Assembly: GCA_944323775.1 (NCBI GenBank)
Contig: CALUTT010000015.1
Coordinates: forward strand, 507-64,506
Direction of reading: 5' to 3'
From: an uncultured Bacteroidales bacterium
GTDB taxonomy: Bacteria > Bacteroidota > Bacteroidia > Bacteroidales > UBA932
DNA length: 64,000 bases
In this document: positions 2,277 through 18,669 of the stretch, piece by piece
Layout of the letters: the number at the start of each line of letters is the position of its first letter
Position numbering within the stretch: position 1 is the first letter of the stretch
Notes under the pieces: generated by a model
Told to the model about the DNA's origin: nothing
The model's database searches: none
The model's input: only the letters and a program-made list of their open reading frames with translations
Position numbers and translations under genes: made by a program

Positions 2277-3686
2277 TCAGTCTTTAAGTTCCAGCCTGCA
2301 TACGTTCTCGACGTGCTGGGTGTGCGGGAACATGTCCACCGGCTGCACGGCCGTTATCCTGTACATCCCGCCCAGTATCTGCAGGTCCCTTGCCTGTGAA
2401 GCCGGATTGCAGCTGACATATACTATTCTCCGCGGAGCGGCCTGCATTATGGTGCTGACCACATCCGGATGCATTCCTGCACGTGGAGGGTCGGTAATTA
2501 CCACGTCCGGACTCCCGTGTGCTGAAATGAATGCCGGAGTCAGTATGTCCTTCATGTCTCCCGCGTAGAAGCTGCAGTTGTCTATTCCGTTTGCAGCTGC
2601 GTTGGCGCGTGCGTCCTCGATTGCCTGTTCGACGTATTCTATGCCGATTACCTGCTTTGCCTTGCGGCTGACGAACTGGGCGATGGTGCCTGTTCCGGTG
2701 TACAGGTCATATACCGTCTCTTCTCCGGAGAGCTGAGCGAATTCCCTTGCTACCTTGTATAGTTCATACGCCTGGGCGCTGTTGGTCTGGTAGAACGACT
2801 TCGGGCTTATCTTGAAGCGCAGGCCTTCCATTGTCTCGTAGATGGCTTCGCTGCCGCTGAAGAGCACCGGATCGAGATCGGCGATACTGTCATTGACCTT
2901 GGTGTTGATGATGTAGTAGAGGGATGTGATCTGCGGGAACGCCTCCATGATGCTCTCGAGCATCCGCTGCCGTCCGTCAAAATCACAGCCGAAGCAGACT
3001 ATTACCATTACCTGCCCGTCTTCGGTCGTGCGGACGAACATGTTCCTGAGCTGCCCGCGGTTTTCCCGTATGTCGTAGAAGCTGATTCCGTGGTCGATTG
3101 CGTACTGCCTTATGAACAGCCTGACTGCATTCGACGGCTCGGGCTGCAGGTAGCAGTGCCTGATGTCCAGGACCTTGTCGAAGAACTTGCCGACATGGAA
3201 GCCGAGCCCGCACTTCTCGTTCTCGGGTATGCTGTCAGGTTCTTCGCCGCTGAGTATCCAGCGTCTGTTGGAGGCCGAGAACTCCAGCTTGTTGCGGTAG
3301 AATCTTGTCTTTGCGGAGCCGATGACGGGGGAGACTTCAGGGATGTCGAGGTGCCCGATTCTCTGGAGCTGGTCCCTTACCTGAAGGCGTTTTGCCTCGA
3401 TCTGCATCCCGTATGGCAGCTGCTGCCAGCGGCAGCCTCCGCACACTCCGAAATGCTCGCAGAACGGCTCAAGCCTGTCGGGGGACGGCTGGACCATGCG
3501 CACTATGCGCCCTTCAAGGTAACTTTTCCTGCTTATGGTGACCCGTACGTCGACTACATCTCCCGGAACTGCGTATTCAATGAAGATGACCTGGCCTTCG
3601 GGCGTATGTGCTATGCACTTTCCCTCCGCGGCGACGGCCTGCACAGTCAGGTTCTCAATGATAGTGTCTTTCTTGACCTTTGGCAT
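2277..3686 (-). CDS. rlmD: 23S rRNA (uracil-1939-C5)-methyltransferase
   Basis: TRAM domain, CEHFGVCGGC Fe-S motif, DLYTGTGTI SAM motif, DPPRAG, YVSCNP, DMFPHTQHVE; start trimmed to MPKVKK at 3686. Confidence 0.93.
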   Translation of the reverse strand: MPKVKKDTIIENLTVQAVAAEGKCIAHTPEGQVIFIEYAVPGDVVDVRVTISRKSYLEGRIVRMVQPSPDRLEPFCEHFGVCGGCRWQQLPYGMQIEAKRLQVRDQLQRIGHLDIPEVSPVIGSAKTRFYRNKLEFSASNRRWILSGEEPDSIPENEKCGLGFHVGKFFDKVLDIRHCYLQPEPSNAVRLFIRQYAIDHGISFYDIRENRGQLRNMFVRTTEDGQVMVIVCFGCDFDGRQRMLESIMEAFPQITSLYYIINTKVNDSIADLDPVLFSGSEAIYETMEGLRFKISPKSFYQTNSAQAYELYKVAREFAQLSGEETVYDLYTGTGTIAQFVSRKAKQVIGIEYVEQAIEDARANAAANGIDNCSFYAGDMKDILTPAFISAHGSPDVVITDPPRAGMHPDVVSTIMQAAPRRIVYVSCNPASQARDLQILGGMYRITAVQPVDMFPHTQHVENVCRLELKD

Positions 3687-3785: not shown

Positions 3786-6700
3786 TCAGTTTGCCGGAGA
3801 GGCTTCGGCAAAGTCCTGGTCTGTGGCGTCACGCACGCAGCGGTAATAGACATATATGTCATCATCGACCTTTTCCCCGGCGTCCCCAAGACAGGTTACC
3901 TGAGTCCAGTCATATCTGAAAGCTATTCTGACCTTTTCATTGGAGAACCTGGTGCTGCAATATATAGGATATTGGCTAAGGGAGCCATTGAGCAACACTT
4001 CAGCGTTGCTCGCCAGAATGGTAAGCTCGGCGAGATTGGGAATTCTCCAGTGCCCTTGTCCGTTGACGGGGTCGTTTATTGACCCTTCGAAGTAATCCGC
4101 GCAGGGGTTCGGCTTGTTATTGCCTATATTCAGGACTTCATCGAGTCTTGCAGGTTCTGTCTGTGCTTTCTTTGAAACAACCAGTCCTTTGTAGAACCTG
4201 TTCTGGAGGTCATCTTCATCGTGCTCGTTCAACTGGGCATCAGTTCTTGTCGGACGGTACATGTTGTTGTCGAACTTGTCTCTGAAATCCAGCAGATAGT
4301 TTCCGTTTGGTATGGTGTACAGATCAAACATTGGGTCAGCCACTGCATAACCGGTGTTGACATCAGCAGGAAGGCTACGTATGCATCTTATCGGCAAGTC
4401 AGCTTCAGTCACACCGCCATACGCACCCTTTTCAACTGCCCAGAAGGTTTGTTTGCCATGTGTGCTGGTATGATACAATGCTCCATCAGCGTAATACTCG
4501 CTCGGATACCAATCGTTATTGTCGGGCCATCCGTCACCATCTGTGTCAGTACCTCTTCTCATTTCACTCTTGTCACCAACATACAGGTTGGATTCGTTGG
4601 ATGTGGCGATTGATCCCATTCCGATTCTCAGATACTCGTTGATGGCAGGAAGATACCAGTGCACTTCGCTTTTGTCGATAATGCCGTCGCCGTCAAGGTC
4701 CCTGTTACGTGACATGCATGCATAATACGCCCTGGCGACATTTTCTCTATACATGTCAGTAAGCTTTCTTGCTCCCGTGACATTGTCCTTGTATCCGTTC
4801 TCTGCCGCATCGATATAGTAATTCCATCCGTAATAAGCAGATCCTGATCCTATCATTGCCCATTGGTTGGACCTGCCGTCTGTATCGCTGTAATAATCAG
4901 ATGATTTCGGATCTCCGTATAGGCACAGCGGAGTCTCATTGAAAGTCTCCAGCCCGAAAGCGTTGATTTCTGAGGCAGCAGTGTTGTAAAAAGTCTGCAT
5001 CGAACGCTGGGAAATGTTGGTATGCACATTGCTGAACGAACTGTTGCCGTCTGATGACGTCTGTACATCCATGCTGATGAGCATTCTGCGCTGTTCCGTA
5101 TTTACGAACGTCCCCCAAGTGATATTGTTTCCGGACAAAGGGTCAGCTGTGTAGTAATATTCATCGACGAAGCCCGTAAAAGTTGCATAATAATGGGCTT
5201 GGCCATCAGAACCGGTACGGCTGAAAACAGAAATCCCTCTGCCGTCTTCAGTACTTTCTGCGGAATTTCCAGTATAAACGGTCTCTCCGTTCATTATTTT
5301 TTCTACGACCTGCCCCATCTTTACGCAGGCGTCATATACGTCAAGCAGTTTTGAGTCAGTCTTACCGTCAGCGCTTTTCCATGAAGGGAGTCCTGGATAT
5401 GACTGAAGGTCACTTACGTCTGTTTTCTGTGGCAGGAATTCGACCCATTTGTAGTCAACATCGGCAAGGTCAGCGGATCTTGCGGCTTCAAGCGCCTGGG
5501 CATAGTCGCCCCCGGAGTAATTCTTGACAAATGTCCTGTATGGATGCAATTCCCTGAGCCCGTTCTGGAAAGGAGTTTCGATTGTGACTATTAGGTGCTC
5601 GCTGATCGCATCGGCGTCACTCATGCCGGAATTCGAGTTCTGCGTTGCTTTTGCCGCCTCGGCGATGGCTGAAAGGTCATATTCAAGGAATACCTGTTCG
5701 AAATGTGCATCAAGGGCATAATTCCTCGTTGTTCCCGAAGTGCTGACGATGCTGCCTTCGGCTCCGGGCTGGTTCTCGACATCAGTGGTTGCCTCGACCT
5801 GAATGTTTTCTATTCCGTGGACAGATACGTTGTAGATGTATCTGTGATTGCGCAGGACTGTGAAGTCTCCCCAGTTCCCAGCACCGAAATTGCCGAGGTG
5901 TATCGTATATGAAACAGTCCCGGCATATACCAGATTGCTGTTGGCGTCCAATTCTGAATACTGTCCTTCGATGACGACATAAGTGGCGTTTACCGGCGCG
6001 TTTGTCCATGCCTTGTGTGTCGGCTTTGCCTCATCGGTTGTGTTACTGTCCCATTTCTCCCTTGAAGAATAGTCGCTGCATACACCGTTTCGGGAATCCT
6101 GGATGTTTTCAGGGATGAAAAACCTGAACGAGAATGAACCCCCTTCGGCACTTCCGATTGGCTTGCGGGTGCCGTCATAATAGAATTCTCTGTAGGACTC
6201 GTTCGGCGAAGTCTCTATTCCTCTGTTCGGTGAAAGCCTGGTTCCTGCAGGAATATTGTAGACATAGTAGTTGGAGGCATTGAATGAAATAGTATGTCCG
6301 TCGGTATTCGTATATTCCTGCCCGATATTGAACTGGATGTCAGCGATGCACCTTTGCAGATAGAGATTGCCGGTCGGGTTGTCTTTTTCGATCGTGACCT
6401 GATCCGCTCCGGTCATTATCATCTGCTGTTCATCGAAAGTCGGGGTGTTTCCGTCCTGACTGAATACTCTTTGAAGGAAAAACAGGCTCTTTCCGAGCTC
6501 TTCGGCTGATTTTCCTGCCTCCGCCCCTTTTTTCAGTTCGTTGACATATTCGGAAAACGATTTCCAGCGGCCAGGGTCATCTGGGTCAAACTCGTCAGTG
6601 CCGACTCCAGTCATGTCATAATGCTGCCAGTTGTTGTCGCTGATATAGTTTCCGAGAGCGCATATCAGTTTATTGCCGGTTGTTGTCGTGAATGTCGCCG

Positions 6701-7058
6701 TATACGTTATCCCGCCGTTGCCGGTGGAGCCGCCGCCGAGCACAAGACTTCCGTCCGCTGTCTCTACAATCTGCTCGCATTTTGACCCGTCAGAGTTGAA
6801 TATGAACAGAATCAGTGAGGTAAGACGAGAATATGAATTTGACTTAGTTACGACCAGTTCTTCCACGTCTTTGGCGGAAAACGTCATGGTCACTTCCACA
6901 GGCTTGCCTTCCTCGACGATCTTTGCGTCAAACTCCTCCTTTACGCATGCGGAGAAGACAAATCCTGCAACTGTCAACATGACAGCCACGGCAATAATCC
7001 TGAATGATATGTATCTGTCAGTCATCATTTTCACTGTTCTATTCAAATGCAGGGACAT
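3786..7058 (-). CDS. Large type V pilus tip/ancillary adhesin (lipoprotein) with C-terminal lectin-like domains
   Basis: Lipobox FVFSAC, processing motif VVTKS, N-terminal pilin fold motifs (LQRCIADIQF, VLRNHRYIYNV), and two W-x-L/I-P-x-x-x-E ... RC(I/V)R modules at the C-terminus. Confidence 0.75.
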   Translation of the reverse strand: MSLHLNRTVKMMTDRYISFRIIAVAVMLTVAGFVFSACVKEEFDAKIVEEGKPVEVTMTFSAKDVEELVVTKSNSYSRLTSLILFIFNSDGSKCEQIVETADGSLVLGGGSTGNGGITYTATFTTTTGNKLICALGNYISDNNWQHYDMTGVGTDEFDPDDPGRWKSFSEYVNELKKGAEAGKSAEELGKSLFFLQRVFSQDGNTPTFDEQQMIMTGADQVTIEKDNPTGNLYLQRCIADIQFNIGQEYTNTDGHTISFNASNYYVYNIPAGTRLSPNRGIETSPNESYREFYYDGTRKPIGSAEGGSFSFRFFIPENIQDSRNGVCSDYSSREKWDSNTTDEAKPTHKAWTNAPVNATYVVIEGQYSELDANSNLVYAGTVSYTIHLGNFGAGNWGDFTVLRNHRYIYNVSVHGIENIQVEATTDVENQPGAEGSIVSTSGTTRNYALDAHFEQVFLEYDLSAIAEAAKATQNSNSGMSDADAISEHLIVTIETPFQNGLRELHPYRTFVKNYSGGDYAQALEAARSADLADVDYKWVEFLPQKTDVSDLQSYPGLPSWKSADGKTDSKLLDVYDACVKMGQVVEKIMNGETVYTGNSAESTEDGRGISVFSRTGSDGQAHYYATFTGFVDEYYYTADPLSGNNITWGTFVNTEQRRMLISMDVQTSSDGNSSFSNVHTNISQRSMQTFYNTAASEINAFGLETFNETPLCLYGDPKSSDYYSDTDGRSNQWAMIGSGSAYYGWNYYIDAAENGYKDNVTGARKLTDMYRENVARAYYACMSRNRDLDGDGIIDKSEVHWYLPAINEYLRIGMGSIATSNESNLYVGDKSEMRRGTDTDGDGWPDNNDWYPSEYYADGALYHTSTHGKQTFWAVEKGAYGGVTEADLPIRCIRSLPADVNTGYAVADPMFDLYTIPNGNYLLDFRDKFDNNMYRPTRTDAQLNEHDEDDLQNRFYKGLVVSKKAQTEPARLDEVLNIGNNKPNPCADYFEGSINDPVNGQGHWRIPNLAELTILASNAEVLLNGSLSQYPIYCSTRFSNEKVRIAFRYDWTQVTCLGDAGEKVDDDIYVYYRCVRDATDQDFAEASPAN

Positions 7059-8109
7059 CTATTGTGTGTTCCACCCATGACATAACAGTAACGTTGAAGG
7101 CAACGTCCTGTATCATGTCGCTTATAGTACCTGAGACATTGATGTGGCTGTTGGCAGGCACGGACGGAAAGTATACGGTCTTTGCTTTTTGTACAGTTAT
7201 TCCGCCGCGTTCAATAGTGTAGTCGATATTCAGGCGGTAGGTCTTGCCGCTGTCATCGTAGGAGGAATTGTCTTCCCTGATGTATGTGTCGGCATTTTCT
7301 GAACCGTATGGGTTCGGAAGGATTGATGCCTCCGCGATGGTCTGTTCGCCATCAGAGAGAATAACGTCAGTGTCGGAAAGAATTACCGACGATCCGTCCT
7401 CATTTTCGGCGAAATATTCTGAAGTTCCGTTTATAAGATCGGTTTTGAGAGCCAGCGGTGCTTCTTTGGGCCCTTTCTCCAAGGTAACCCCTGTCACCGT
7501 TATTGTAGATTCACCATTTTTTTTCAGGCTGAGAGTAAGGCGGGAAATACAACGCTTGACATCAATGGGGATTATCTGCGTTCTGCCAGTCTCACCGTAG
7601 ACTGTGAATGAAAAGTTGTTGCTGTTTACCGCTCCTCCGGTGACGCGCTCGTTGCACATAGGCACGAATGCCGTTCCGGAGTAGGGAGCCAATGTCGAGA
7701 ATGTCCTGCTGTCGATGGCGCCGAGGACTGTGGACTCATCAAGGGCGGCCTCGGGATATATGCAGTCGTCGTTGATGATGACAACGAAATCCAGATCGCA
7801 TGGGAACTGCATGCCTGAGGTCTCGTCCCCGATCTGTATCGGACAGAGATAGGGCCCGGGCCTGTCTATGTTGGGGAAATAAGCGTATCCGACAGCCTTC
7901 TCGTCTGTGGAACCGCTCTTGTATGCATATACTCTTATGGAGTGTATGCCATAGTAGTCTTCTGCAGATTTGGTCTGCCTGGCATCTATTTTCAATAGGA
8001 CTTCAGCCGGGCCGGCGCTGCCCGCCGCCTGCCCGCGCTCAACGCATCCTGTAACGAGAGCGCAGACCAAAAACGAAACGATGAAATATATATGACGCAG
8101 CCTTAACAT
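7039..8109 (-). CDS. Type V pilus minor pilin (lipoprotein)
   Basis: Lipobox LVTGC, QTKS processing motif, VKRCISRLTL, C-terminal donor-strand-like SWVEHTIDVPAFE; start uncertain (8109 or 8142). Confidence 0.72.
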   Translation of the reverse strand: MLRLRHIYFIVSFLVCALVTGCVERGQAAGSAGPAEVLLKIDARQTKSAEDYYGIHSIRVYAYKSGSTDEKAVGYAYFPNIDRPGPYLCPIQIGDETSGMQFPCDLDFVVIINDDCIYPEAALDESTVLGAIDSRTFSTLAPYSGTAFVPMCNERVTGGAVNSNNFSFTVYGETGRTQIIPIDVKRCISRLTLSLKKNGESTITVTGVTLEKGPKEAPLALKTDLINGTSEYFAENEDGSSVILSDTDVILSDGEQTIAEASILPNPYGSENADTYIREDNSSYDDSGKTYRLNIDYTIERGGITVQKAKTVYFPSVPANSHINVSGTISDMIQDVAFNVTVMSWVEHTIDVPAFE

Positions 8110-8119
8110 GTGGTGTATA

Positions 8120-9019
8120 TTATTCAAAACCAGGATTGACATCCACGATATCCCAGTCCACGACGCTGATTCCGGTTTCTGAATATGTTATCAGGATAGG
8201 AATCGTCACTTCGTTTATCCCGTTGACACCTATGTCATAACGGTCTATGAAGTTGCTCAGAGACAGTTCATATATGTCCCTTCCATCCGAATGCCTGATT
8301 TCTATCTTGCAGTCCGGGTCGTCTTCATCGAAGCGGAATACGTTATAGAACAAAACATAGGCATCCTGGTCTTCCGGATCCGGGCTCATTTCCGGAATGA
8401 TTTCGCACGTTTGCTCGGACGGAGTATTGGCAAAGTCGGTATATTCCGAACTGCCGAGGTGTGAGAGAACAATCTCAGCTGTTTCGCCGGTGCTTGCATC
8501 TGTCAACTGGGCGAAGCCGTCCAGCTTGACGTACATTTTAATATGCGAGCTCTCGAAATAACACGTCTTTTCAACGTCAACGAGCGTTCTGGGAACTGTA
8601 AGGTCAACAGTGCTGAAATACAGGGAGTCAACGCCTGAGAAACTGTTGCTCTCGTCAAAATGACCCGGTTCTGCTATCCTGCCTGTTCCCCAGTTCTTGT
8701 CCATCATCGAGCGTTCCGCCGCATTTCCCCACAGGACGAACTTCCACTCGCCTGGCGGCAAGATGATATGTGCCCCTTGACATGAAGCAAGGTCCTGTTT
8801 GTCGAATATGTATTCGGAATGAAAGGCTGAATTGTCAACGGAGTAGACATACAATCCGACACTTTCAATCTTGTCCGGGAATATATCGGTGTTTCCGTCC
8901 CCATTATAGATGAAGTGCAGAAAAACGTCTCCGCCGCAGTCGTCGCGGTTCTCTCTTATGCAGCCTGACGCGACAATCAGAGTGAGAACAGATAGAATAA
9001 TATGCCTGACTATTGACAT
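8120..9019 (-). CDS. FimB/Mfa2-family pilus anchor lipoprotein
   Basis: Lipobox VASGCIRE, typical F-x-Y-x-GDG...FPDKIESVGLYVY and WGN motifs; ends DWDIVDVNPGFE; start trimmed to 9019. Confidence 0.8.
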   Translation of the reverse strand: MSIVRHIILSVLTLIVASGCIRENRDDCGGDVFLHFIYNGDGNTDIFPDKIESVGLYVYSVDNSAFHSEYIFDKQDLASCQGAHIILPPGEWKFVLWGNAAERSMMDKNWGTGRIAEPGHFDESNSFSGVDSLYFSTVDLTVPRTLVDVEKTCYFESSHIKMYVKLDGFAQLTDASTGETAEIVLSHLGSSEYTDFANTPSEQTCEIIPEMSPDPEDQDAYVLFYNVFRFDEDDPDCKIEIRHSDGRDIYELSLSNFIDRYDIGVNGINEVTIPILITYSETGISVVDWDIVDVNPGFE

Positions 9020-9047
9020 TTCGCCCGTCTTTTGTCTTGGAAGTTTG

Positions 9048-9080
9048 AAAACAAAGGGGGCAGGAGCAGTCCTGCCCCCT
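9048..9080 (-). terminator. Intra-operon intrinsic terminator after the left major pilin
   Basis: Perfect 10-bp stem AGGGGGCAGG (9055-9064) / CCTGCCCCCT (9071-9080), followed by TTGTTTT on the minus strand. Confidence 0.75.
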
Positions 9081-9086
9081 GGACTG

Positions 9087-10550
9087 TCATTCAAATTCCG
9101 GAGTTACGTTTATTGTATCGAAATCAATTACATTTACATTGACAATCACATTGTATTCATCGGCCGGCGCTACCGTTCCGGTAGTGATGTTGGCCGGAGT
9201 GATTGTAACAGCGTCCATCTTGTATATCTTGGCGGGTTTGATGGCTACTGGCGCATCATTTTCCTTGAACTGCACGATGTTGGCGTAGTAGATGTTGTCA
9301 TTTGTCACTGCAAGTGAGAATTTGCCGACTATCGCCAGATAAAGGAGAGGATCTTTAGCCTCGTCCATCTTTTCCCATACGCCTTCGGAAGTCTCTTCTT
9401 CTGCCGTATATGTATAGCCGCTTCCGTCATACTGGAACTGGATATGGAAAGTAGGGTGGTTTCCATTAGTTTTGCTGATTTCAGGATCTGATTCTATGTC
9501 TTCGCCTTCAGCCGTGACATCGTAGTTCACAAGGAAGTTGAAAGGGACGCATGTTGTTCCTTCTCCATCGTAATAAACCGTATTTTCTCCTTCTGCTTTC
9601 TGGGTATAGCTAAAGAGCTGGTCATAGCTTGCCCCGTTCCAGTTGCTGTAGAATGTGACGCCGTCCTTGTTCAAATCCTCTTCAAGATTAGCCCATTTTC
9701 CATTTTCAATGCCGCTCTGTCCGGTAGGCGTGACGAAAAGGTCGCTTGCAGGATTCTTTGCCGGCAGGGGAGTCCATTTCCGATAGAAGTTGGACATATA
9801 GATGCCTCCAAGAACAGGATTGAATCCCTCCCAGTGTACCCTGAAGGTCCTGCCTTTGTAGTTCTCACCTATGGTCGCTCCGTCTATTTCTTCAGAATAT
9901 CCGGAGGTCTGTACAGAAATCTTTCCGATCTCCAGTCTTGATATTACAGGCCTGATGTCAATATCGGCAGTATAATACTGCTGGTCCTCTTCAGGCTTGG
10001 CTTCGTCTCCATTCATATCATATGAAGGCCCGTCGAAGCCGTCTGCCAATTCATCCCTGAGTGGTGTGATGTCTGCATCACCTCCCATGAAAGGTATTAC
10101 GTTCTGGTCTGCGCTTGCCGGGTAGTCCTGCAATTGAAGAAAGATCTGGTTCATGTTCTGTCCTTCGGTCGGCGCGGTGACATTCCCTCTGTTTGCAATC
10201 ACGTATACTTTGCTGACTCCGTCAAGCCCGACGTAGCGGACACCCGTACCGCCGACGAGACTCGACCATTCATTCTGGTCGTCGGTCGGGTTGATGCTCC
10301 TGTAGCTGACGACATTATCGTTTGCAGTCGTGAAGTAGATGTCGATGGTCTTGAATTCATGCTCGTTCTTGTAAGGATCATCTCCAACTATTTGAGAAGA
10401 ACCTTTGGTAAGATTGGCCCCGTTGATGGTGACGGTGATCGCCTTGGTCCCGGCATCAGGATTTGTTACCGGAGACGATGTCTCCTTATTGCATCCGACG
10501 AGCGCGAATGCAGCAATGGCTCCTGCCGTGATTAAAGAATAAATTTTCAT
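9087..10550 (-). CDS. Major type V pilin (FimA/Mfa1-like lipoprotein), left operon
   Basis: Lipobox FALVGC, NLTKG processing motif, IRPVISRLEI motif, C-terminal VNVNVIDFDTINVTPEFE; followed by a terminator. Confidence 0.8.
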   Translation of the reverse strand: MKIYSLITAGAIAAFALVGCNKETSSPVTNPDAGTKAITVTINGANLTKGSSQIVGDDPYKNEHEFKTIDIYFTTANDNVVSYRSINPTDDQNEWSSLVGGTGVRYVGLDGVSKVYVIANRGNVTAPTEGQNMNQIFLQLQDYPASADQNVIPFMGGDADITPLRDELADGFDGPSYDMNGDEAKPEEDQQYYTADIDIRPVISRLEIGKISVQTSGYSEEIDGATIGENYKGRTFRVHWEGFNPVLGGIYMSNFYRKWTPLPAKNPASDLFVTPTGQSGIENGKWANLEEDLNKDGVTFYSNWNGASYDQLFSYTQKAEGENTVYYDGEGTTCVPFNFLVNYDVTAEGEDIESDPEISKTNGNHPTFHIQFQYDGSGYTYTAEEETSEGVWEKMDEAKDPLLYLAIVGKFSLAVTNDNIYYANIVQFKENDAPVAIKPAKIYKMDAVTITPANITTGTVAPADEYNVIVNVNVIDFDTINVTPEFE

Positions 10551-10600
10551 GACTTGTTTATTTGATTGTTGAATAATTTATTGGTATTGATATGAGTGCC

Positions 10601-12073
10601 TTATGGAGCAAGCTGTTCAACAACTCTTGAAAGCTCCTCAATATTGTGCCCCGCCTCGGGGTTTCCTGCCGCTGCGGCAGACTTGAGCGACTGTCTGGCC
10701 TCGTCGTAGTCTCCGCTTTCGGCCTGCAGGATTCCCAGGGTGTTCAGCAGCATGGGACTGTCGTGGCCTTCGAGAAGCCTCATCGCCTCCTGGCCCTTGC
10801 CCGCAGAGCGCAGGGCGAGCGCCGCTGTCTGGAGAGCTGCCTCGTCGTCGGGATAGGTCCTGACAGCCGCGAGCAGAACATCAAGGTACTCCGGGCTGTC
10901 CTCCCCGTAGAGCCGGGCCACCGCCTTGAACTCGTCAACGCTGAGCAGCTCAGGTCTGTCGCGCCACAGGCGCTCGGCCTGCTCCGGGCTGAAGTCCCTG
11001 ATGACGTAATCAATAGTGTATTCCGTGCGGCGCAGCGACGGCAGTATGCACTCGCGCAGGTAGTCGTAGAGTTCAGAGTCCTGCTTGAGGATTCTCTCGC
11101 ATTCGCTCCAGTTGTCTTCGCTGAGCATTTCCCGAATTCTCGTGATGGTCCTGTTCGAGGCGATCCTGTCGTCATTGCCGGCGGCTTTGAACAGCCCTTC
11201 CCAGTCCTCTCCGACGCTTTTCACGCTTACCTTGCCCGCAGGGATTCCAGGTACGTGCGCAATAGCGTATTCCGCAAGGCTCCTGGCACGGTTTTCCGCG
11301 AGAGTACGGTTGAATCCTTCGGGGCCGTCAGGCGAAGCATATCCCGTGAAACTGATTCCTACTATGCTGTACAGCGATGAGTCCGAGGCGGTTTCCAGAG
11401 TCGAGATCACGTCGTCAAGGATCTCTGCGTTTCCGCTGAAGTCAGGCAGTATGTCGAATTTGTTGATCACGAATTTAAGGTCTGCCCTGGCGGAGAAGCT
11501 GCGTGTCTTGCTGGCGCCTGCCTCGGTGGAAGTGAACTCCCAGCGCGGGATATGCTTCCTGATACCTGTCTGCGTGACAAGTGAATCCTCATGCTCGGTG
11601 CATCCGGCGCAGCCGGTCACCACTTCACGGAATACCACCTTCCCGTCAAGCATTGATGGGGAGTAGGGGAGTCTGGCAGTGTACTGTATTGTCTTGTCGG
11701 TGTCTCCCTGGCGGATCACGACGCTTCCCCGGGGCCTTTCGACGCCGGAAAGGACCTCGATGCGGTCAATGGCCTTCGCCCGTGTCCGTCCGTCGATATA
11801 CACCGGGCTGAATTCATAGGACTGCGTCCCGTCAGCTGACACCAGCACCGGGATTATGCAGGACGAATGCTGCGGAGAGATGAGATCCGTCTCCCTGGCG
11901 TTAATGACCATGCTCAGCTGAGCATATTTCTCGGCACCGGAAACTATCTCCATCCGGCATGATGACGTATCTATTATCTCCAGCCATGAATCCCTTGTCG
12001 CCGCGCCGGCGTTCAGAGCGGCAAAAAGCGAGACGGCGGCAACGGAAGTTGCATAATATACCATGTGTTTCAT
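10601..12073 (-). CDS. DUF3868 / OmpA-like / TPR pilus-associated protein, left operon
   Basis: IIPVLVSADG...PVYIDGR N-domain, GYASPDG...N..LAENRA OmpA motif, LRRTEY, TPR-like C-terminus. Confidence 0.8.
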   Translation of the reverse strand: MKHMVYYATSVAAVSLFAALNAGAATRDSWLEIIDTSSCRMEIVSGAEKYAQLSMVINARETDLISPQHSSCIIPVLVSADGTQSYEFSPVYIDGRTRAKAIDRIEVLSGVERPRGSVVIRQGDTDKTIQYTARLPYSPSMLDGKVVFREVVTGCAGCTEHEDSLVTQTGIRKHIPRWEFTSTEAGASKTRSFSARADLKFVINKFDILPDFSGNAEILDDVISTLETASDSSLYSIVGISFTGYASPDGPEGFNRTLAENRARSLAEYAIAHVPGIPAGKVSVKSVGEDWEGLFKAAGNDDRIASNRTITRIREMLSEDNWSECERILKQDSELYDYLRECILPSLRRTEYTIDYVIRDFSPEQAERLWRDRPELLSVDEFKAVARLYGEDSPEYLDVLLAAVRTYPDDEAALQTAALALRSAGKGQEAMRLLEGHDSPMLLNTLGILQAESGDYDEARQSLKSAAAAGNPEAGHNIEELSRVVEQLAP

Positions 12074-12082
12074 TCGTCGGTC

Positions 12083-12667
12083 TTATTGGATCATGAAAAT
12101 GATGCTTACCAGCAGTTTCGTGAGAGTGAATCGGTTAGAGATACCCTCCTCGATCAGTTCACCGCATCTGACACATTCATATTCTTCGTACTTCGTGCCG
12201 ACGTACCCGGCTCCGATTTCAGCCTCGATGCTCCATCGCGGCGAGAGTATCCACTGGTAGCCGTATCCCACTCCGGCACCGTACATCCAGCCTTCATACC
12301 TGTTGTTCTTCAGTTGTTCGTAGAAGTTGAAGGGAAAGAAGGGATTGGCCATGTTGAACTCGCCTCCAAGCAAATGTGCCGCGAAGAAGTGGCCGTTGAA
12401 TGCCTCGCACAGATAGAACCGTGCTTCCGGCTGGATCATCCAGAGTTTCTGTTTTCTGTAATTCGGGAAATCCCATGGGTTGTAGCTCCCCGAAACATCG
12501 ACGGTCCATTGCGGGGCGACGGCAGCTTCAACTCCCAGGTTGAGAGTTGCCGTTGCATCGGAAAGAAGATTGGTCTTCACAGCCAGATTCTGCGCTCGGA
12601 CCATATTGACAGGGAGGATTGAAAGTGTCAAAACACATATGAGTCTGACAAAAATCCGTTGTTCCAT
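12083..12667 (-). CDS. DUF3575 outer-membrane beta-barrel protein, left operon
   Basis: AVKTNLL..ATATLNLGVE, YNPW, WMIQPEARFYLCEAFNGHFF, GAGVGYGYQW, IEAEIGAGY; start 12667 or 12679. Confidence 0.85.
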   Translation of the reverse strand: MEQRIFVRLICVLTLSILPVNMVRAQNLAVKTNLLSDATATLNLGVEAAVAPQWTVDVSGSYNPWDFPNYRKQKLWMIQPEARFYLCEAFNGHFFAAHLLGGEFNMANPFFPFNFYEQLKNNRYEGWMYGAGVGYGYQWILSPRWSIEAEIGAGYVGTKYEEYECVRCGELIEEGISNRFTLTKLLVSIIFMIQ

Positions 12668-12705
12668 TATATGAGGCAATCGTTTTTTTCGGTTTACTGA
12701 TGTCC

Positions 12706-12721
12706 TTCTCTTAATGAGAGA
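12706..12721 (+). repeat. Left inverted repeat (IRL) TTCTCTTAATGAGAGA
   Basis: Exact reverse complement of 12905-12920; extends to 20/22 identity over 12700-12721 vs 12905-12926. Confidence 0.92.
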
Positions 12722-12904
12722 TGGTTATTGGTCTCACAAATATAGGAATATCATTAAGATATGCAAAATTTTCTTGTGAAAATTCTCAAAATCATATTTT
12801 GAAACTGTAAAAATATATGCTCAATCGATTATGATTTTATCGTGCAGAGACGGCAAAAACCGCCCCTGACGCCATCCAGGCGGCATTCGACAGCCAATGC
12901 ACAT
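12722..12904. mobile_element. Putative invertible promoter segment (inverton, 183 bp)
   Basis: Bounded by perfect 16-bp inverted repeats, contains a single oriented promoter, lies between divergent paralogous operons, and has a tyrosine recombinase in the same block. Confidence 0.8.
12737..12767 (-). promoter_or_regulatory. Bacteroidetes consensus promoter TTTG-N19-TATATTTG pointing to the left pilus operon
   Basis: Minus-strand -33 TTTG (12767-12764), 19-bp spacer and -7 TATATTTG (12744-12737), all inside the inverted repeats. Confidence 0.85.
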
Positions 12905-12920
12905 TCTCTCATTAAGAGAA
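12905..12920 (-). repeat. Right inverted repeat (IRR) TCTCTCATTAAGAGAA
   Basis: Exact reverse complement of 12706-12721; ends 45 bp before the right operon ATG. Confidence 0.92.
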
Positions 12921-12965
12921 AAACATTTTTTATACACTAATTGATAACACGCCAACAATAATGCT

Positions 12966-13541
12966 ATGAGAAAATTTTTCTCAGTGTTTATTGCGATATG
13001 CTGCTGGAGTGTAGGGAGTGCCCTTGCACAGGACTTTGCGTTAAAGACCAACGCTCTCTACTGGCTTACGACCACACCGAATCTTGGAGTGGAGCTTTCC
13101 ATTGGAAACCGAGCAACCCTGAATGTCGAAGGCGGGTACAATCCCTGGACTCTTGACAAGGCCGAAAACAGGAAAATCAAGCACTGGATGGTCACGCCTG
13201 AATTCAGGTGGTGGCTTTGCGAGACTTTCAACGGTCATTTCTTCGGAATCAATACCGGCTACTCCTTCTTCAACATCAGCGGAATGCCTATCCTGTTCCA
13301 TGGCTCCGATACGCGCAACTACCGCTATCAGGGCTGGGCTACCGGTGTCGGCCTGAACTATGGGTACTCATGGATTGTCGGCAGCAGGCTCAATATTGAA
13401 TTCACTTTCGGGGTCGGATATGTCTATTCCCGTTATGACAAGTATGAGTGCCGTACATGCGGAGACCATCTCGGCCCGGAAGAGAATCATTACCTGGGGC
13501 CGACCAAGGCCGGGATATCCCTGATATACATGATAAAATAA
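12966..13541 (+). CDS. DUF3575 outer-membrane beta-barrel protein, right operon
   Basis: ALKTNALYWLTTTPNLGVE, YNPW, HWMVTPEFRWWLCETFNGHFFG; clear paralog of 12083-12667. Confidence 0.85.
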   Translation: MRKFFSVFIAICCWSVGSALAQDFALKTNALYWLTTTPNLGVELSIGNRATLNVEGGYNPWTLDKAENRKIKHWMVTPEFRWWLCETFNGHFFGINTGYSFFNISGMPILFHGSDTRNYRYQGWATGVGLNYGYSWIVGSRLNIEFTFGVGYVYSRYDKYECRTCGDHLGPEENHYLGPTKAGISLIYMIK

Positions 13542-13551
13542 CACCCTGACA

Positions 13552-15036
13552 ATGAACAAGACCGCCATATTGATGCTGCTCGCTGCCGTATCGTTCCCGT
13601 TTGTGGACGCTTCGGCCGGGACCGGCAACTATCTTCCCTCCATCGGTATTGACGCCGTCTCCGTTACCAAGGTCGGACGGGAGGTCGAGCTACGTATGAG
13701 TGTCGACATCTCTGCGCTGAAGATACATACTCAGCATACACTTGCACTGATACCCGTTATTGTCTCTGGTGACGGATCCCGTGAAGCCGCCTTTCCTCCC
13801 GTGGTGATAGACGGGAAGACCCGCGGGAAAGTCTACCTCAGGGCCAGGCGTCTCGAGAGTGTCGGCCTGCCGCCGTATCATGACGGAGATGCCGCTGCCG
13901 TAATCTTCAGGGAGAACGGAAAGTCCCAGAAGTATGACTACAGCGCAAGTGTCCCGTATTCCCGCTGGATGCTCGACGGCAGACTGGAGATCCGTGAAGA
14001 GGTGCACGGGTGTGTGGACTGCAAGGTCGGAAGCGACAGTGTGGACGTGTCCGGGGTGCTTCCTGAATATGTGCCGGAATACCGCCTCGGCGTAGTCGCT
14101 CCTGAAACTGAGCCGGCAAAATCGAGGACCGAGTCCTGCACGGCCATGATAGCATTCCGTCAGGACAGCCATCGCATCCGTCCGGAGTACAGGAACAACC
14201 GTGCGGAACTGGACAGTGTCGCGAATTCGATAACTGAGGTCATCGCAGACCCGGCTCTGGAAATCACCGGTATATCAATAACTGGATATGCGTCTCCGGA
14301 GGCGACGGAGGAATACAACCTGAGGCTGTCGGGAAAACGTGCGGATGCTCTCAAGGAGTACATAACGTCAAACTGGGACATTGCCCCCGGACTCATAAGG
14401 TCCAAAGGAGTTGGAGAGGACTGGGAAGGCTTTGTAAGCGGACTCGACGAATGTCCCGGACTGGCCGGTCTCGACCGTATCAAGGCTCTGCTTGCTGAAT
14501 ACAGTGGACGTAACGACCTGTGCGAGTCCATGATCAGCCGCCTTGAACCGTCAGGTATCTATGCCAGACTGTTAAACGAGGTATATCCTTCCCTGCGGAG
14601 GCTTGAATATGAAATCAGGTATGAAGTCAGGAATTTCAGTCTGGAGGAGGCGAGCAACATTATCAGAGAGCGGCCGTGGCTGCTTAGCCTCGGGGAGATG
14701 TATATGGTTGCAGCCTCTTGCGGGAAGGGAAGCGAAGGATACCGGATGGCCATGGAAACGGCCTTTGAGTATTATCCTGACTCTCCGGCTGTTGTCAACG
14801 ACAGGGCTCTGGATCTCATATCTTCCGGGCAGTATGACGCAGCGGTGGAACTTCTCGGTTCTTTCGCCGGTCTGGAAGGTCAGGCCGAACTGCTCAATAC
14901 TCTCGGTGTCGCCCTGGCAAGGCTCGGCCGTCTTGACCGTGCATCGGAGTGTCTGCGTGAGGCAGTCTCGCTCGGAGGGACCGAAACGGCGGTGCACAAC
15001 CTTGAAGAACTGAAGCGGGTGATCGACCAGCTCTGA
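13552..15036 (+). CDS. DUF3868 / OmpA-like / TPR pilus-associated protein, right operon
   Basis: LIPVIVSGDG...PVVIDGKTR, GYASPEA...YNLRLSGKRA, LRRLEY, TPR tail ending NLEELKRVIDQL; paralog of 10601-12073. Confidence 0.8.
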   Translation: MNKTAILMLLAAVSFPFVDASAGTGNYLPSIGIDAVSVTKVGREVELRMSVDISALKIHTQHTLALIPVIVSGDGSREAAFPPVVIDGKTRGKVYLRARRLESVGLPPYHDGDAAAVIFRENGKSQKYDYSASVPYSRWMLDGRLEIREEVHGCVDCKVGSDSVDVSGVLPEYVPEYRLGVVAPETEPAKSRTESCTAMIAFRQDSHRIRPEYRNNRAELDSVANSITEVIADPALEITGISITGYASPEATEEYNLRLSGKRADALKEYITSNWDIAPGLIRSKGVGEDWEGFVSGLDECPGLAGLDRIKALLAEYSGRNDLCESMISRLEPSGIYARLLNEVYPSLRRLEYEIRYEVRNFSLEEASNIIRERPWLLSLGEMYMVAASCGKGSEGYRMAMETAFEYYPDSPAVVNDRALDLISSGQYDAAVELLGSFAGLEGQAELLNTLGVALARLGRLDRASECLREAVSLGGTETAVHNLEELKRVIDQL

Positions 15037-15087
15037 ATGTCAGAGAACCTACATCGTAAATAACAATAACAAACTAAATCCAATGAT

Positions 15088-16194
15088 ATGAAAATGAATC
15101 TCAAATTTTTCGCCCTGGCGGCCGTAGCCGTCTCGGTGACCCTCGTCTCCTGCAACAAGACACAGACAGTCAGCCTCCCCGGAACTCCGAAGAGCGTGAC
15201 AATCAAGCTCTCTAACGTCGTTCCAGGAACACGTTCCATGGGCGGAGAACAGATTGCGGCGGGAACCAAAGTGACTCTGAACGATTTCCAGGTGTTCTTC
15301 ACCGACGGGACAACGCTCTATCTTCCGAAGAACATCGACAATACCGATTATGCCGAGACTTACTTCGACGGGACTGGCGGAGTGCCCACTGAGGCCAGTT
15401 TCCATTTTCTTCCGGCCCAGGTCACCAGCGTTGTAGTGATAGGAAACATCGGTAGCAAGATCACTGTCGAGAACGGAGTCACGGCTCTCTCTGAACTCCA
15501 GAACAGAGAGCTTGAGATTGCCGGCCAGCAGGATATTGACAACCTGACTCTTTACAGTGGGGTACAGCAGCTGCAGCTGGCCTCTGACGCTTCCCATATG
15601 GATGCGCATGATACCCCGGTATACACGGCTGACCTTACGCTTGCCCCGAGAATCGCAAGGCTTTTCGTAAAGGACTTTACATATTCTGTCAAATCAGACG
15701 CCTCTGTATACAAGACACTTGAGATGCTCAAGATGGCAATCAACAATTACTATGGCAAGACTACTCTCGGCGGTTCGGAAAGCGAGCTGACATCACAGGA
15801 AATCAACACGTCGACCGTATGGAACTGGTTCTCTGGATTCACCGATTCTGCATGGAACTGGGATGATCTAAGCAGCATAAAGGTGACGGTTACTGCTGCT
15901 AACACTCCGGTTTCTGTAGAAGCCGGTGGCCTGTACTACCATTTCTTTGTAGATGATGACAAGCCCCAGGTGCCTCAGCTCGTGCTCCAGTGTGTCAGCG
16001 ACGACGAACCCCAGTATCTCGCCACTCTGAATTTCAAGGATTCCGATGGAGAACCTATAGCCTGGGAAAACGGATATATCTATGAAATGAGCTTCTCCTT
16101 CACTGACGAGCAGCTCTCGCATCCTGACAAGTGCGTGGACATCACGGTCAATCCTGTAGAGTGGCAGGTGGTGACAGTCACACCTGAATTCTGA
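15088..16194 (+). CDS. Major type V pilin (FimA/Mfa1-like lipoprotein), right operon
   Basis: Lipobox VTLVSC, GTRS processing motif, LAPRIARL, C-terminal DITVNPVEWQVVTVTPEF; same position in the operon as the left major pilin. Confidence 0.78.
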   Translation: MKMNLKFFALAAVAVSVTLVSCNKTQTVSLPGTPKSVTIKLSNVVPGTRSMGGEQIAAGTKVTLNDFQVFFTDGTTLYLPKNIDNTDYAETYFDGTGGVPTEASFHFLPAQVTSVVVIGNIGSKITVENGVTALSELQNRELEIAGQQDIDNLTLYSGVQQLQLASDASHMDAHDTPVYTADLTLAPRIARLFVKDFTYSVKSDASVYKTLEMLKMAINNYYGKTTLGGSESELTSQEINTSTVWNWFSGFTDSAWNWDDLSSIKVTVTAANTPVSVEAGGLYYHFFVDDDKPQVPQLVLQCVSDDEPQYLATLNFKDSDGEPIAWENGYIYEMSFSFTDEQLSHPDKCVDITVNPVEWQVVTVTPEF

Positions 16195-16234
16195 CAACCG
16201 TCTTGTTTTCCAGCCGATACATAAACACCCTGCC

Positions 16235-17128
16235 ATGAAATTCAATGTGCCGGTCCTGCTCCTTGGGCTTCAGATCCTTCCTGTGCTCTCTTCGTGCATC
16301 AGGGAGGACCTGAGCCAGTGCAATCCCGGAAGCGTGAACCTTCTCGAGATGAGTTATCTTGGTGACGGCACCACGGAGATATTTCACGACAAGATAAGCC
16401 GTGTGGACATGTATGTCTTTGATTCCCGGGGAACATGCGTCAGCACTTCGACTCTGCCTGATGATCAGATGGCAAGCCGGATTGCCGAGCTGCCTCCGCT
16501 CGGGCCGGGCGACTACCATGTGGTATGTCTCGGGAATCCCCACAATACAATAGTCGACCGGCTTTCTTCGGGAGACTACAGCCAGATAGTGTTCATGGAC
16601 AGGGCATATTATGAAAACAGTACCGTCTCCGGCAATGACGCTCTGTATTTTGCCGCTATAGACTACAGAGTTACGGCTGAGGACCAGCGCCGCCTGCTTG
16701 AATTCGAGAGCTCTCACTACTACCTTTCAGTAGAAGTGGCCGGAGTCCCGGCTCCCGCGACAAAGTCATATGACCATCCCTATATTATGGTCAGCGGCCT
16801 GTCCCCGCACACGAGTTTCGAAAACGAGGCGGGTGGCGAGATGACCGAATACCTGCTTGAGTCGACCCACGATGCCGACAGGAAATATCTGTCAGCAAGC
16901 GCGAACATCATGAGGCACAGTGACCATTCCGCAGTGGATGTCAGTGTGATGAGCGCAGGCGGTGACACCATTGCAAGCATCAATCTTGAGGAGTTCCTTG
17001 CTGACAATCCCGAGGTCGACTGCAGCAGGCAGGAGGTGGTTATCCCCATCTATATTGAGTTCAAGTCCGGGGATGTGACGGTGAGGCTTCCGGACTGGTA
17101 TGTAGAAGAAGTGAATCCAGAGTTTTAA
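16235..17128 (+). CDS. FimB/Mfa2-family pilus anchor lipoprotein
   Basis: Lipobox VLSSCIRE, YLGDG...FHDKISRVDMYVFD, LGN, FESSH motif shared with the left anchor; ends DWYVEEVNPEF. Confidence 0.8.
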   Translation: MKFNVPVLLLGLQILPVLSSCIREDLSQCNPGSVNLLEMSYLGDGTTEIFHDKISRVDMYVFDSRGTCVSTSTLPDDQMASRIAELPPLGPGDYHVVCLGNPHNTIVDRLSSGDYSQIVFMDRAYYENSTVSGNDALYFAAIDYRVTAEDQRRLLEFESSHYYLSVEVAGVPAPATKSYDHPYIMVSGLSPHTSFENEAGGEMTEYLLESTHDADRKYLSASANIMRHSDHSAVDVSVMSAGGDTIASINLEEFLADNPEVDCSRQEVVIPIYIEFKSGDVTVRLPDWYVEEVNPEF

Positions 17129-17140
17129 CGGTTCCGGAAC

Positions 17141-18667
17141 ATGAAGCTGATATACAAGTCATTAGCCATCGCCGCCGTCATCCCCTCATTGCTGCTGTCG
17201 GGATGCGCCAAGGAAAACTCCCCGTACCGCGGAGAGGAGCGCAGCGTGCTGCTGCAGATGAATGTCGGTACAAGGGCCGTGGACGAACTCGACGGCACTC
17301 CGGATCCTGCAGAATCGGCTATCAATACCTTGAGGGTGTATGCGTTTGTGGACGGGGAACTTGCAGGACATTTCTATTCTGCCGATGCCTCGTCTCTTGA
17401 TCCTGGGGACAGCGGCGGCAGGCGGTTTCTGATGGATCTGAAGATGTATTCGCTCGGGTCCAGGAATGTCGATTTCTATGTAGTGGCCAATGAAAAGGCC
17501 ATGGTGACCGCCGGAGGATCCAGAGAATTGACCGACCGTACCACGCAGTCCGAACTAGACAGCTTTACCTTTACAGGGTTGGATATATCGGGCGGTCTTC
17601 CGATGTGCTGCCGGCAGACCGAAACGATAGATTTTGACTCTGATGCTCAGGACAACCCCCAGACAGTGCCGGGTCATGAAGGACATACTCTTCTGGACAG
17701 GAAACTCTCCTTCACTCTCAGCCGGCCGGTGGGAAAGCTCGGGGTCTTCGCTGCAAAGCCGCAAGGGGAGCCTGGACGGCTCTACATTACCGGCATATCG
17801 ATGACCAGGGCCAGATTCGTAAACTATCTGATGCCACAGAATGATCCGGATGTGTTCGGAACTGTCGGAAGTCCGGCATCGAGAGAGTTGAGCTTCATCG
17901 CGGACGAGATTCAGTCGGGCCTTCCAGAGACGGCGGACCGCACTGATGCAGGCAATTATACTCCAGTTCTCGACGAGGCATATTATCCTTTCGAGAACCC
18001 GTGGGGGAGCGGGACATGGGATGCTCCCGGCGATGCAAGGGGAAACATCCTCACTTTGAGATACCGCTTTGACGGAGAAGAAGAGCGTACCGGAACGGTA
18101 TACATGCCTCCGGTAGTCCGTAACAGCTACTACAAGGTTTGCTGCCTGATAAACAACAGCGGAAAAATCACCGTCGAGTATACTGTGGCTGACTGGGATG
18201 ACGAAGACGTCTATACTCTGGATTTCGCTTATCCGACCTATGTCAATCCACTGATGCCTCCCGGAGGCGTCATCCCGACATATCCTCCGACCATATACTA
18301 CAACAGCGACCCTGATTCGGCAGAAGGGGCGTTTGAGGTGAATTTCAACATAAGCGCCCCAGTCGGCCAGGAATGGCAGCCTACTCTGCTCAACGCGACA
18401 CAAGGGGACTATGAGGTTACGGTATGGCAGGGCGGCCAGAAGATGAGTCCGCCATATTATCCTTCGCCTGACGACTACACCATAAGGATCAGGGCCCTGA
18501 AGCCGGACAATGTCGGAAAGAAGATAGACTTTGCGATTGCATATGTTCCGAAATGGGATCCCTCGGAGTCTTCGATGCTTCTTATCAACGGCCAGCAGAA
18601 TGATACTAAATGGCCCGGCAGCGACGACCCGCAGATTATTGTTGTTGAACAGATTGACCACGTGTGA
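17141..18667 (+). CDS. Type V pilus minor pilin (lipoprotein)
   Basis: Lipobox LLSGC, VGTRA motif, INTLRVYAF, LSRPVGKL, VVRNSYYKV. Confidence 0.72.
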   Translation: MKLIYKSLAIAAVIPSLLLSGCAKENSPYRGEERSVLLQMNVGTRAVDELDGTPDPAESAINTLRVYAFVDGELAGHFYSADASSLDPGDSGGRRFLMDLKMYSLGSRNVDFYVVANEKAMVTAGGSRELTDRTTQSELDSFTFTGLDISGGLPMCCRQTETIDFDSDAQDNPQTVPGHEGHTLLDRKLSFTLSRPVGKLGVFAAKPQGEPGRLYITGISMTRARFVNYLMPQNDPDVFGTVGSPASRELSFIADEIQSGLPETADRTDAGNYTPVLDEAYYPFENPWGSGTWDAPGDARGNILTLRYRFDGEEERTGTVYMPPVVRNSYYKVCCLINNSGKITVEYTVADWDDEDVYTLDFAYPTYVNPLMPPGGVIPTYPPTIYYNSDPDSAEGAFEVNFNISAPVGQEWQPTLLNATQGDYEVTVWQGGQKMSPPYYPSPDDYTIRIRALKPDNVGKKIDFAIAYVPKWDPSESSMLLINGQQNDTKWPGSDDPQIIVVEQIDHV

Positions 18668-18669
18668 GG

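Follow-up and report, generated by a model that had tools for sequence, protein, structure and literature searches.

Two type V pilus operons in the genome of an uncultured Bacteroidales species run in opposite directions from a short segment that is bounded by inverted repeats and carries one consensus promoter. The arrangement raises the question of which operon this promoter serves, and whether inversion of the segment could hand it from one pilus to the other. The locus was analysed within a stretch of 64,000 nucleotides, contig C15:507-64506 of the assembly, which we refer to as the window and to which all coordinates apply unless a contig is named.

Two paralogous type V pilus operons

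Operon A occupies 3786..12667 on the minus strand and comprises genes A1 to A6, which were assigned through profile matches and structure models. These are, in order of transcription, A1 (DUF3575, 12083-12667), A2 (OmpA/TPR, 10601-12073), A3 (a FimA-fold pilin according to its structure model, 9087-10550), A4 (an Mfa2-type anchor, 8120-9094; PF08842, E 2.3e-26), A5 (7039-8142) and A6 (DUF4906 with a weak Lcl_C match, 3786-7058), all on the minus strand. Operon B extends over 12966..24683 on the plus strand and contains B1 to B8, likewise all on one strand: B1 (DUF3575), B2 (DUF3868/OmpA/TPR), B3 (a FimA-fold pilin according to its structure model, 15088-16194), B4 (an Mfa2-type anchor, 16235-17128; PF08842, E 3.8e-28), the FimA-like B5 and B6, B7, and B8 (DUF5106, 23769-24683). 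A preliminary description of this DNA had taken both neighbours of the segment for pilus operons, and the Mfa2-type anchors and FimA-fold pilins present in each bear this out.

The two pilins A3 and B3 went unrecognised in Pfam, NCBIfam and PDB sequence searches, and structure prediction alone identified both. Their AlphaFold models, with pLDDT values of 80 for A3 and 77 for B3, have structural matches among FimA type V prepilins and related “cell adhesion” entries (6jzk, 4jg5, 4gpv and 6kmf), at E values of 1e-10 to 5e-14 and a probability of 1.0. The pilus subunits carry lipoprotein-type signal peptides with LxxC-type N-termini. Within either operon the gaps between genes are at most 51 nt, and both operons are arranged as mfa1-mfa2-accessory operons with a DUF3575/OmpA pair in front. 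Matched gene pairs of A and B share 40, 36, 29 and 22 % identity. Judged by their sequences and predicted structures, operons A and B encode two distinct, paralogous type V pili.

A 183-bp segment between perfect inverted repeats

The segment itself measures 183 bp (12722..12904). The perfect 16-bp inverted repeats that had been described around it are indeed present, as TTCTCTTAATGAGAGA on the left (12706..12721) and its exact reverse complement on the right (12905..12920). The distance from repeat to first gene, given earlier as 27-45 bp, measures 38 nt on the left (to the ATG at 12667) and 45 nt on the right (to the ATG at 12966), and with the TTG at 12679 as start codon the left distance would be 26 nt. 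With imperfect pairing the repeats extend to 22 nt (91 %). The left repeat is internally dyadic around an asymmetric spacer, TCTCT-TAATG-AGAGA, and dyads of this kind, asymmetric at the centre and present in each repeat, are what one would expect of a recombinase core site.

These repeats stand out against the remainder of the DNA. Allowing up to two mismatches, the 64-kb window contains two matches to the repeat, both of them the known copies, where shuffled sequences lead one to expect 0.02. The 1.7-Mb genome harbours 63 perfect inverted-repeat pairs of at least 12 bp spaced 60-600 bp apart; two of these are 16-bp pairs, and the switch pair is the only one to enclose a promoter motif. No second pair with the switch repeat motif was found elsewhere in the genome. 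A genome-wide search for promoter invertons suggests that this small assembly (1.7 Mb, 35 contigs) contains one convincing case only. Dozens of invertons are reported in Bacteroides, far more than the one found here. A 78-nt inverted repeat (12382-12459 and 13168-13245, 71 % complementarity) was considered as a second recombination site and discarded, as it reflects the paralogy of the DUF3575 genes A1 and B1.

The promoter-distal half of the segment contains a core of about 44 nt (12816..12859, minus strand) that shows no variation in any haplotype seen. It reads GGGGCGGTTTTTGCCGTCTCTGCACGATAAAATCATAATCGATT on the minus strand, and the adjoining 40 nt are variable among haplotypes. The core folds as a strand-specific hairpin (z = -3) and forms no clean terminator. 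An intrinsic terminator upstream of the promoter, suggested by a scan, was rejected because folding places the T-run in the hairpin loop.

A single consensus promoter within the segment

One Bacteroidota consensus promoter, TTTG-N19-TATATTTG, was found inside the segment by its motif, as the preliminary description had held. It lies at 12737..12767 on the minus strand and is directed at operon A in the window. The companion claim, that a canonical plus-strand promoter is lacking, also stood: TAnnTTTG is absent from 12700-12930, even with one mismatch allowed. Across the genome the full motif occurs 120 times, 99 of them outside long ORFs, although long ORFs cover 87 % of the DNA, and for 67 of the 120 an ORF on the same strand starts no more than 150 nt downstream. 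Because the motif is concentrated outside ORFs and near gene starts, it can be regarded as the promoter consensus of this organism, and we infer that the segment promoter is active in transcription.

Positions 3600 to 25800, a span of 22 kb, contain the full promoter motif in a single copy, the one inside the segment. Scanning the flanks and the intergenic gaps of operons A and B for the motif revealed no correctly oriented -7 box, where such consensus scans are blind to weak or non-consensus promoters.

Both orientations in public assemblies

The preliminary description had the segment invert; the opposite orientation was accordingly sought in other assemblies, and it was found within the same species. 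Public contigs of the species were gathered through exact-protein matches from ENA assemblies and Logan contigs, and orientation was tallied as one state per sample. The promoter is directed toward operon A in 7 samples (the window, SRR32591470, SRR19939425, SRR19939436, SRR21898929, SRR17030637 and SRR19939437) and toward operon B in 10 (ERZ24773269, ERZ28614272, ERR4096309, SRR17030640, SRR33933610, ERZ21549410, ERZ21563600, ERZ21549445, SRR36242933 and SRR35937581). Public assemblies thus hold both orientations of the 183-bp segment in the same flanking context. In two contigs, L008 and L009, the flanks agree with the window at 100 % over 819-1049 nt per side, and the middle is carried on the opposite strand.

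Single-nucleotide polymorphisms in the flanks and the segment define two haplotypes, each of which is present in both states. In haplotype 1, the window and L006 stand against L007-L009 in the opposite state; in haplotype 2, L014, L015, L044 and L045 stand against L011 and L017. With each haplotype found in either state, the flip must have occurred more than once. Two neighbouring run accessions differ in state as well, SRR17030640 being directed toward B and SRR17030637 toward A.

The ends of several Logan contigs fall exactly at the inner edge of the repeat (L013 and L046) or 14 nt inside it (L015 and L044). Logan contigs derive from a short-read graph with k=31, and the paths of such a graph branch at these contig ends if both orientations share one sample, so that this is the expected pattern of breaks. 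The ENA assemblies, which show varied styles of contig names and include contigs of 264 and 484 kb, and the Logan contigs are concordant, which makes an artefact unlikely. Collectively, these observations leave us nearly certain that the segment inverts in nature.

Several contigs of the species deviate at the switch. In L006 (SRR32591470), where the promoter is directed toward operon A, a point change at window position 12739 converts the -7 box from TATATTTG to TATATCTG, which may weaken the promoter. In SRR36242933 (contig L012:1-60), unrelated sequence that has no consensus -7 box takes the place of the segment's promoter-proximal end, and L012 terminates at this point; L018 (SRR35937581), of the same haplotype as L012, stops short of the replaced end. 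A gene for a 304-aa DDE transposase (PF01609; L010:2815-3729, also in L037, L039 and L041) is located 13 bp outside the right repeat. This insertion sequence (IS) sits between the switch and operon B in three assemblies, and in all three the promoter is directed toward the IS and operon B. With the IS in this position, operon B may go unserved in those strains, and the switch may be disabled or altered there.

A proposed either/or switch and its alternatives

In the state of the window, transcription from the promoter would proceed leftward, cross the left repeat and enter operon A. Recombination between the 16-bp repeats would turn the same promoter around, and transcription would then proceed rightward, cross the right repeat and enter operon B. 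In the A state the promoter is 15 nt from the left repeat, the predicted transcription start is at about 12730, and A1 would have a leader of about 63 nt; in the B state the -7 box would end at 12889, with a predicted start at about 12896 and a leader of about 70 nt for B1. Transcripts of both states would run through the repeat in the same sense, so the first 30 nt or so of both leaders would be identical. A cell would make pilus A or pilus B, and the arrangement would have no built-in OFF state.

Given that no other consensus promoter was found for operon A or operon B, the most economical interpretation is a flip that hands the single promoter from one operon to the other. We consider it probable that the segment is an either/or switch between two pili, and from the layout of the sequence we infer mutually exclusive expression of operons A and B.

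The described fimbrial invertons of Bacteroidales are ON/OFF switches (PMC12940148), and the present segment might likewise turn one operon on and off while the other is driven by a non-consensus promoter or is effectively silent. Weak promoters are invisible to motif scans, and operon B is severed from the switch in the IS-bearing strains, yet A and B are each intact, with first genes that are conserved in many samples, no -7 box is present in either flank or in any intergenic gap, and the layout is symmetric on the two sides. An ON/OFF switch for one operon is further weakened by the operon starts, which lie 38-45 nt from the repeat and leave no room for a promoter of their own; we consider it rather unlikely.

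The invariance of the 44-nt core in the promoter-distal half would suit a regulatory site, and hence a segment that modulates expression levels or has some other role while both operons are always expressed from other signals. Such constant expression is hard to reconcile with a single consensus promoter in 22 kb and with the strong association between the motif and gene starts across the genome, and it seems to us improbable. That the two orientations reflect fixed differences among strains or artefacts of assembly, with no active switch behind them, is scarcely credible: the orientation evidence does consist of consensus assemblies, but both states occur in each of two haplotypes and also between flanks that are 100 % identical, different assembly sets are concordant, contigs break exactly at the repeat, and a repeat of 16 bp falls below the usual k-mer length and so cannot produce a misassembly on its own.

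A candidate recombinase at the end of operon B

A short tyrosine recombinase of 296 aa, with Phage_int_SAM_5 and Phage_integrase domains, is encoded at 24716..25606 on the minus strand, convergent with the end of operon B. Five genes in the genome match PF00589, and that at 24716-25606 is the only short SAM_5-type tyrosine recombinase among them. Alignment to XerA (4a8e) reveals HxxR-like, GH and Y motifs. The position of the first arginine is occupied by a serine, a feature of IntDOT-type Bacteroidota enzymes. The place of the gene beside DUF5106, at the end of operon B, is kept in other samples of the species, and its homologues occur patchily in the genus.

Two of these homologues are found next to invertons. 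In the related genome G018, 18 bp separate a homologue with 43 % identity from an inverton that has a UpxY-like gene downstream (L057:9533-9850, G018:C50), in what is probably a capsule locus, and the repeat core of that inverton, TCTC-N5-GAGA, is similar to the TCTCT-N5-AGAGA of the present switch. In the related genome G035, a homologue with 51 % identity abuts a promoter-bearing inverton with 27-nt repeats (L056:7787-7989, G035:C31). No repeat-flanked segment adjoins the recombinase of the window itself, and 11.8 kb separate it from the switch; the homologues in G018 and G035 adjoin their invertons. The genome also encodes a serine recombinase, from one PF00239 gene on contig C3, and the repeat of the switch resembles the repeat beside a tyrosine-recombinase homologue. 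With one short recombinase, one inverton and a related type of site, the gene at 24716-25606 is the best candidate, and its product most likely catalyses the inversion, as far as sequence comparison can indicate.

In 24665-24716, operon B and the recombinase gene converge at a distance of 32 nt, with only a hairpin that has no U-tract between them, and read-through from operon B would run antisense to the recombinase gene. One could imagine a self-biasing two-state toggle on this basis, in which antisense read-through in the B state lowers the recombinase and makes B steadier than A, but we regard this idea as a long shot. If true, it would amount to an orientation-dependent feedback acting over 12 kb, reminiscent of the way in which orientation controls fimE in E. 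coli.

Distribution in relatives

The closest relatives of the species are uncultured Bacteroidales, including metagenome-assembled genomes (MAGs) of Candidatus Coprenecus and one human-gut MAG. DUF3575 genes are present in 38 of the 41 genomes of the genus, and an adjacent divergent pair of them occurs in the genome of the window only. A divergent partner operon is absent at 9 genome loci and 14 metagenome loci. Among homologous single operons, 6 of 17 have a consensus promoter directed toward the gene, and no convincing repeat-flanked switch was seen at those examined, two loci being left aside (L031, with a 17-bp repeat, and L033, with the promoter facing away). A DNA search of 60 relatives with the switch region retrieved short promoter-like matches only and no homologous switch, and scanning JGI metagenome DNA for the segment's conserved core yielded 0 matches. 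The two-operon layout appears to have arisen recently, at the level of the species.

Comparison with known inversion systems

Promoter inversion by a tyrosine recombinase (Tsr) is known for type V (Mfa1-like) fimbriae at BVU2677/BVU2684 of Phocaeicola vulgatus and at BF2766 of Bacteroides fragilis, where it works as an ON/OFF switch at one locus each, and in P. vulgatus the recombinase gene adjoins its promoter (PMC12940148). The present locus resembles these in having a short promoter segment between inverted repeats upstream of a type V pilus operon, in the same order, and the enzymes there are of the tyrosine type, as is the candidate here. It differs in that the segment is common to two divergent operons and the candidate recombinase is located 11.8 kb away; the repeat motif of P. 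vulgatus and B. fragilis, TACTTNNNANGTAANNGAA, is unrelated to the present repeat.

Site-specific inversion that joins a unique active promoter to one surface-protein gene or another, with alternate instead of ON/OFF expression as the outcome, is described for the mba locus of Ureaplasma parvum (MBA / UU376) and for vsp, vpma and vsa of Mycoplasma (PMC3047005). The present locus agrees with these Mollicutes systems in its single promoter and in its oppositely oriented targets, for which motif scans found no promoters of their own. In the Mollicutes, single lipoprotein genes or 5' parts of genes are moved, and crossover inside or next to coding sequence is possible, whereas the present switch is a bare promoter cassette, wholly non-coding, that would serve two multi-gene pilus operons in a Bacteroidota genome. 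A further parallel is sapA of Campylobacter fetus, where Dworkin and Blaser reportedly described, in 1996-97, a single promoter on an invertible segment between opposed surface-protein genes, one or the other of which is expressed. That segment is said to span several kb and to depend on homologous 5' gene regions and RecA; the present switch has short repeats and a putative site-specific recombinase instead.

Engineered recombinase memory devices reportedly place a flippable promoter between divergent reporters (PMC6868429). They follow the same logic of one promoter and two outputs by synthetic means, whereas the present switch is natural. Within the full-text literature, whose coverage is incomplete, we found no description of one inverton common to two divergent pilus operons. 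Recombinase-flipped promoters of type V pili and single-promoter either/or inversion are thus both already known, and it is their combination on two pilus operons that appears undescribed.

Implications

Surface variation in gut Bacteroidales proceeds mainly through many independent ON/OFF flips of promoters. The finding comes from one uncultured species known only from metagenome assemblies, and it looks to be of low generality. Inverton-scoring tools usually link each inverton to one regulated gene and label one of the two states “OFF”, and shared invertons like the present one would be misread by them. The switch would also offer, in compact and natural form, a parallel to engineered recombinase memory devices with two outputs. 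If the either/or reading is true, its logic differs from that of independent flips: the cell would always be piliated and would never carry both pili together, and the exchange of one pilus for the other would have consequences for adhesion, immune recognition and phage receptors.
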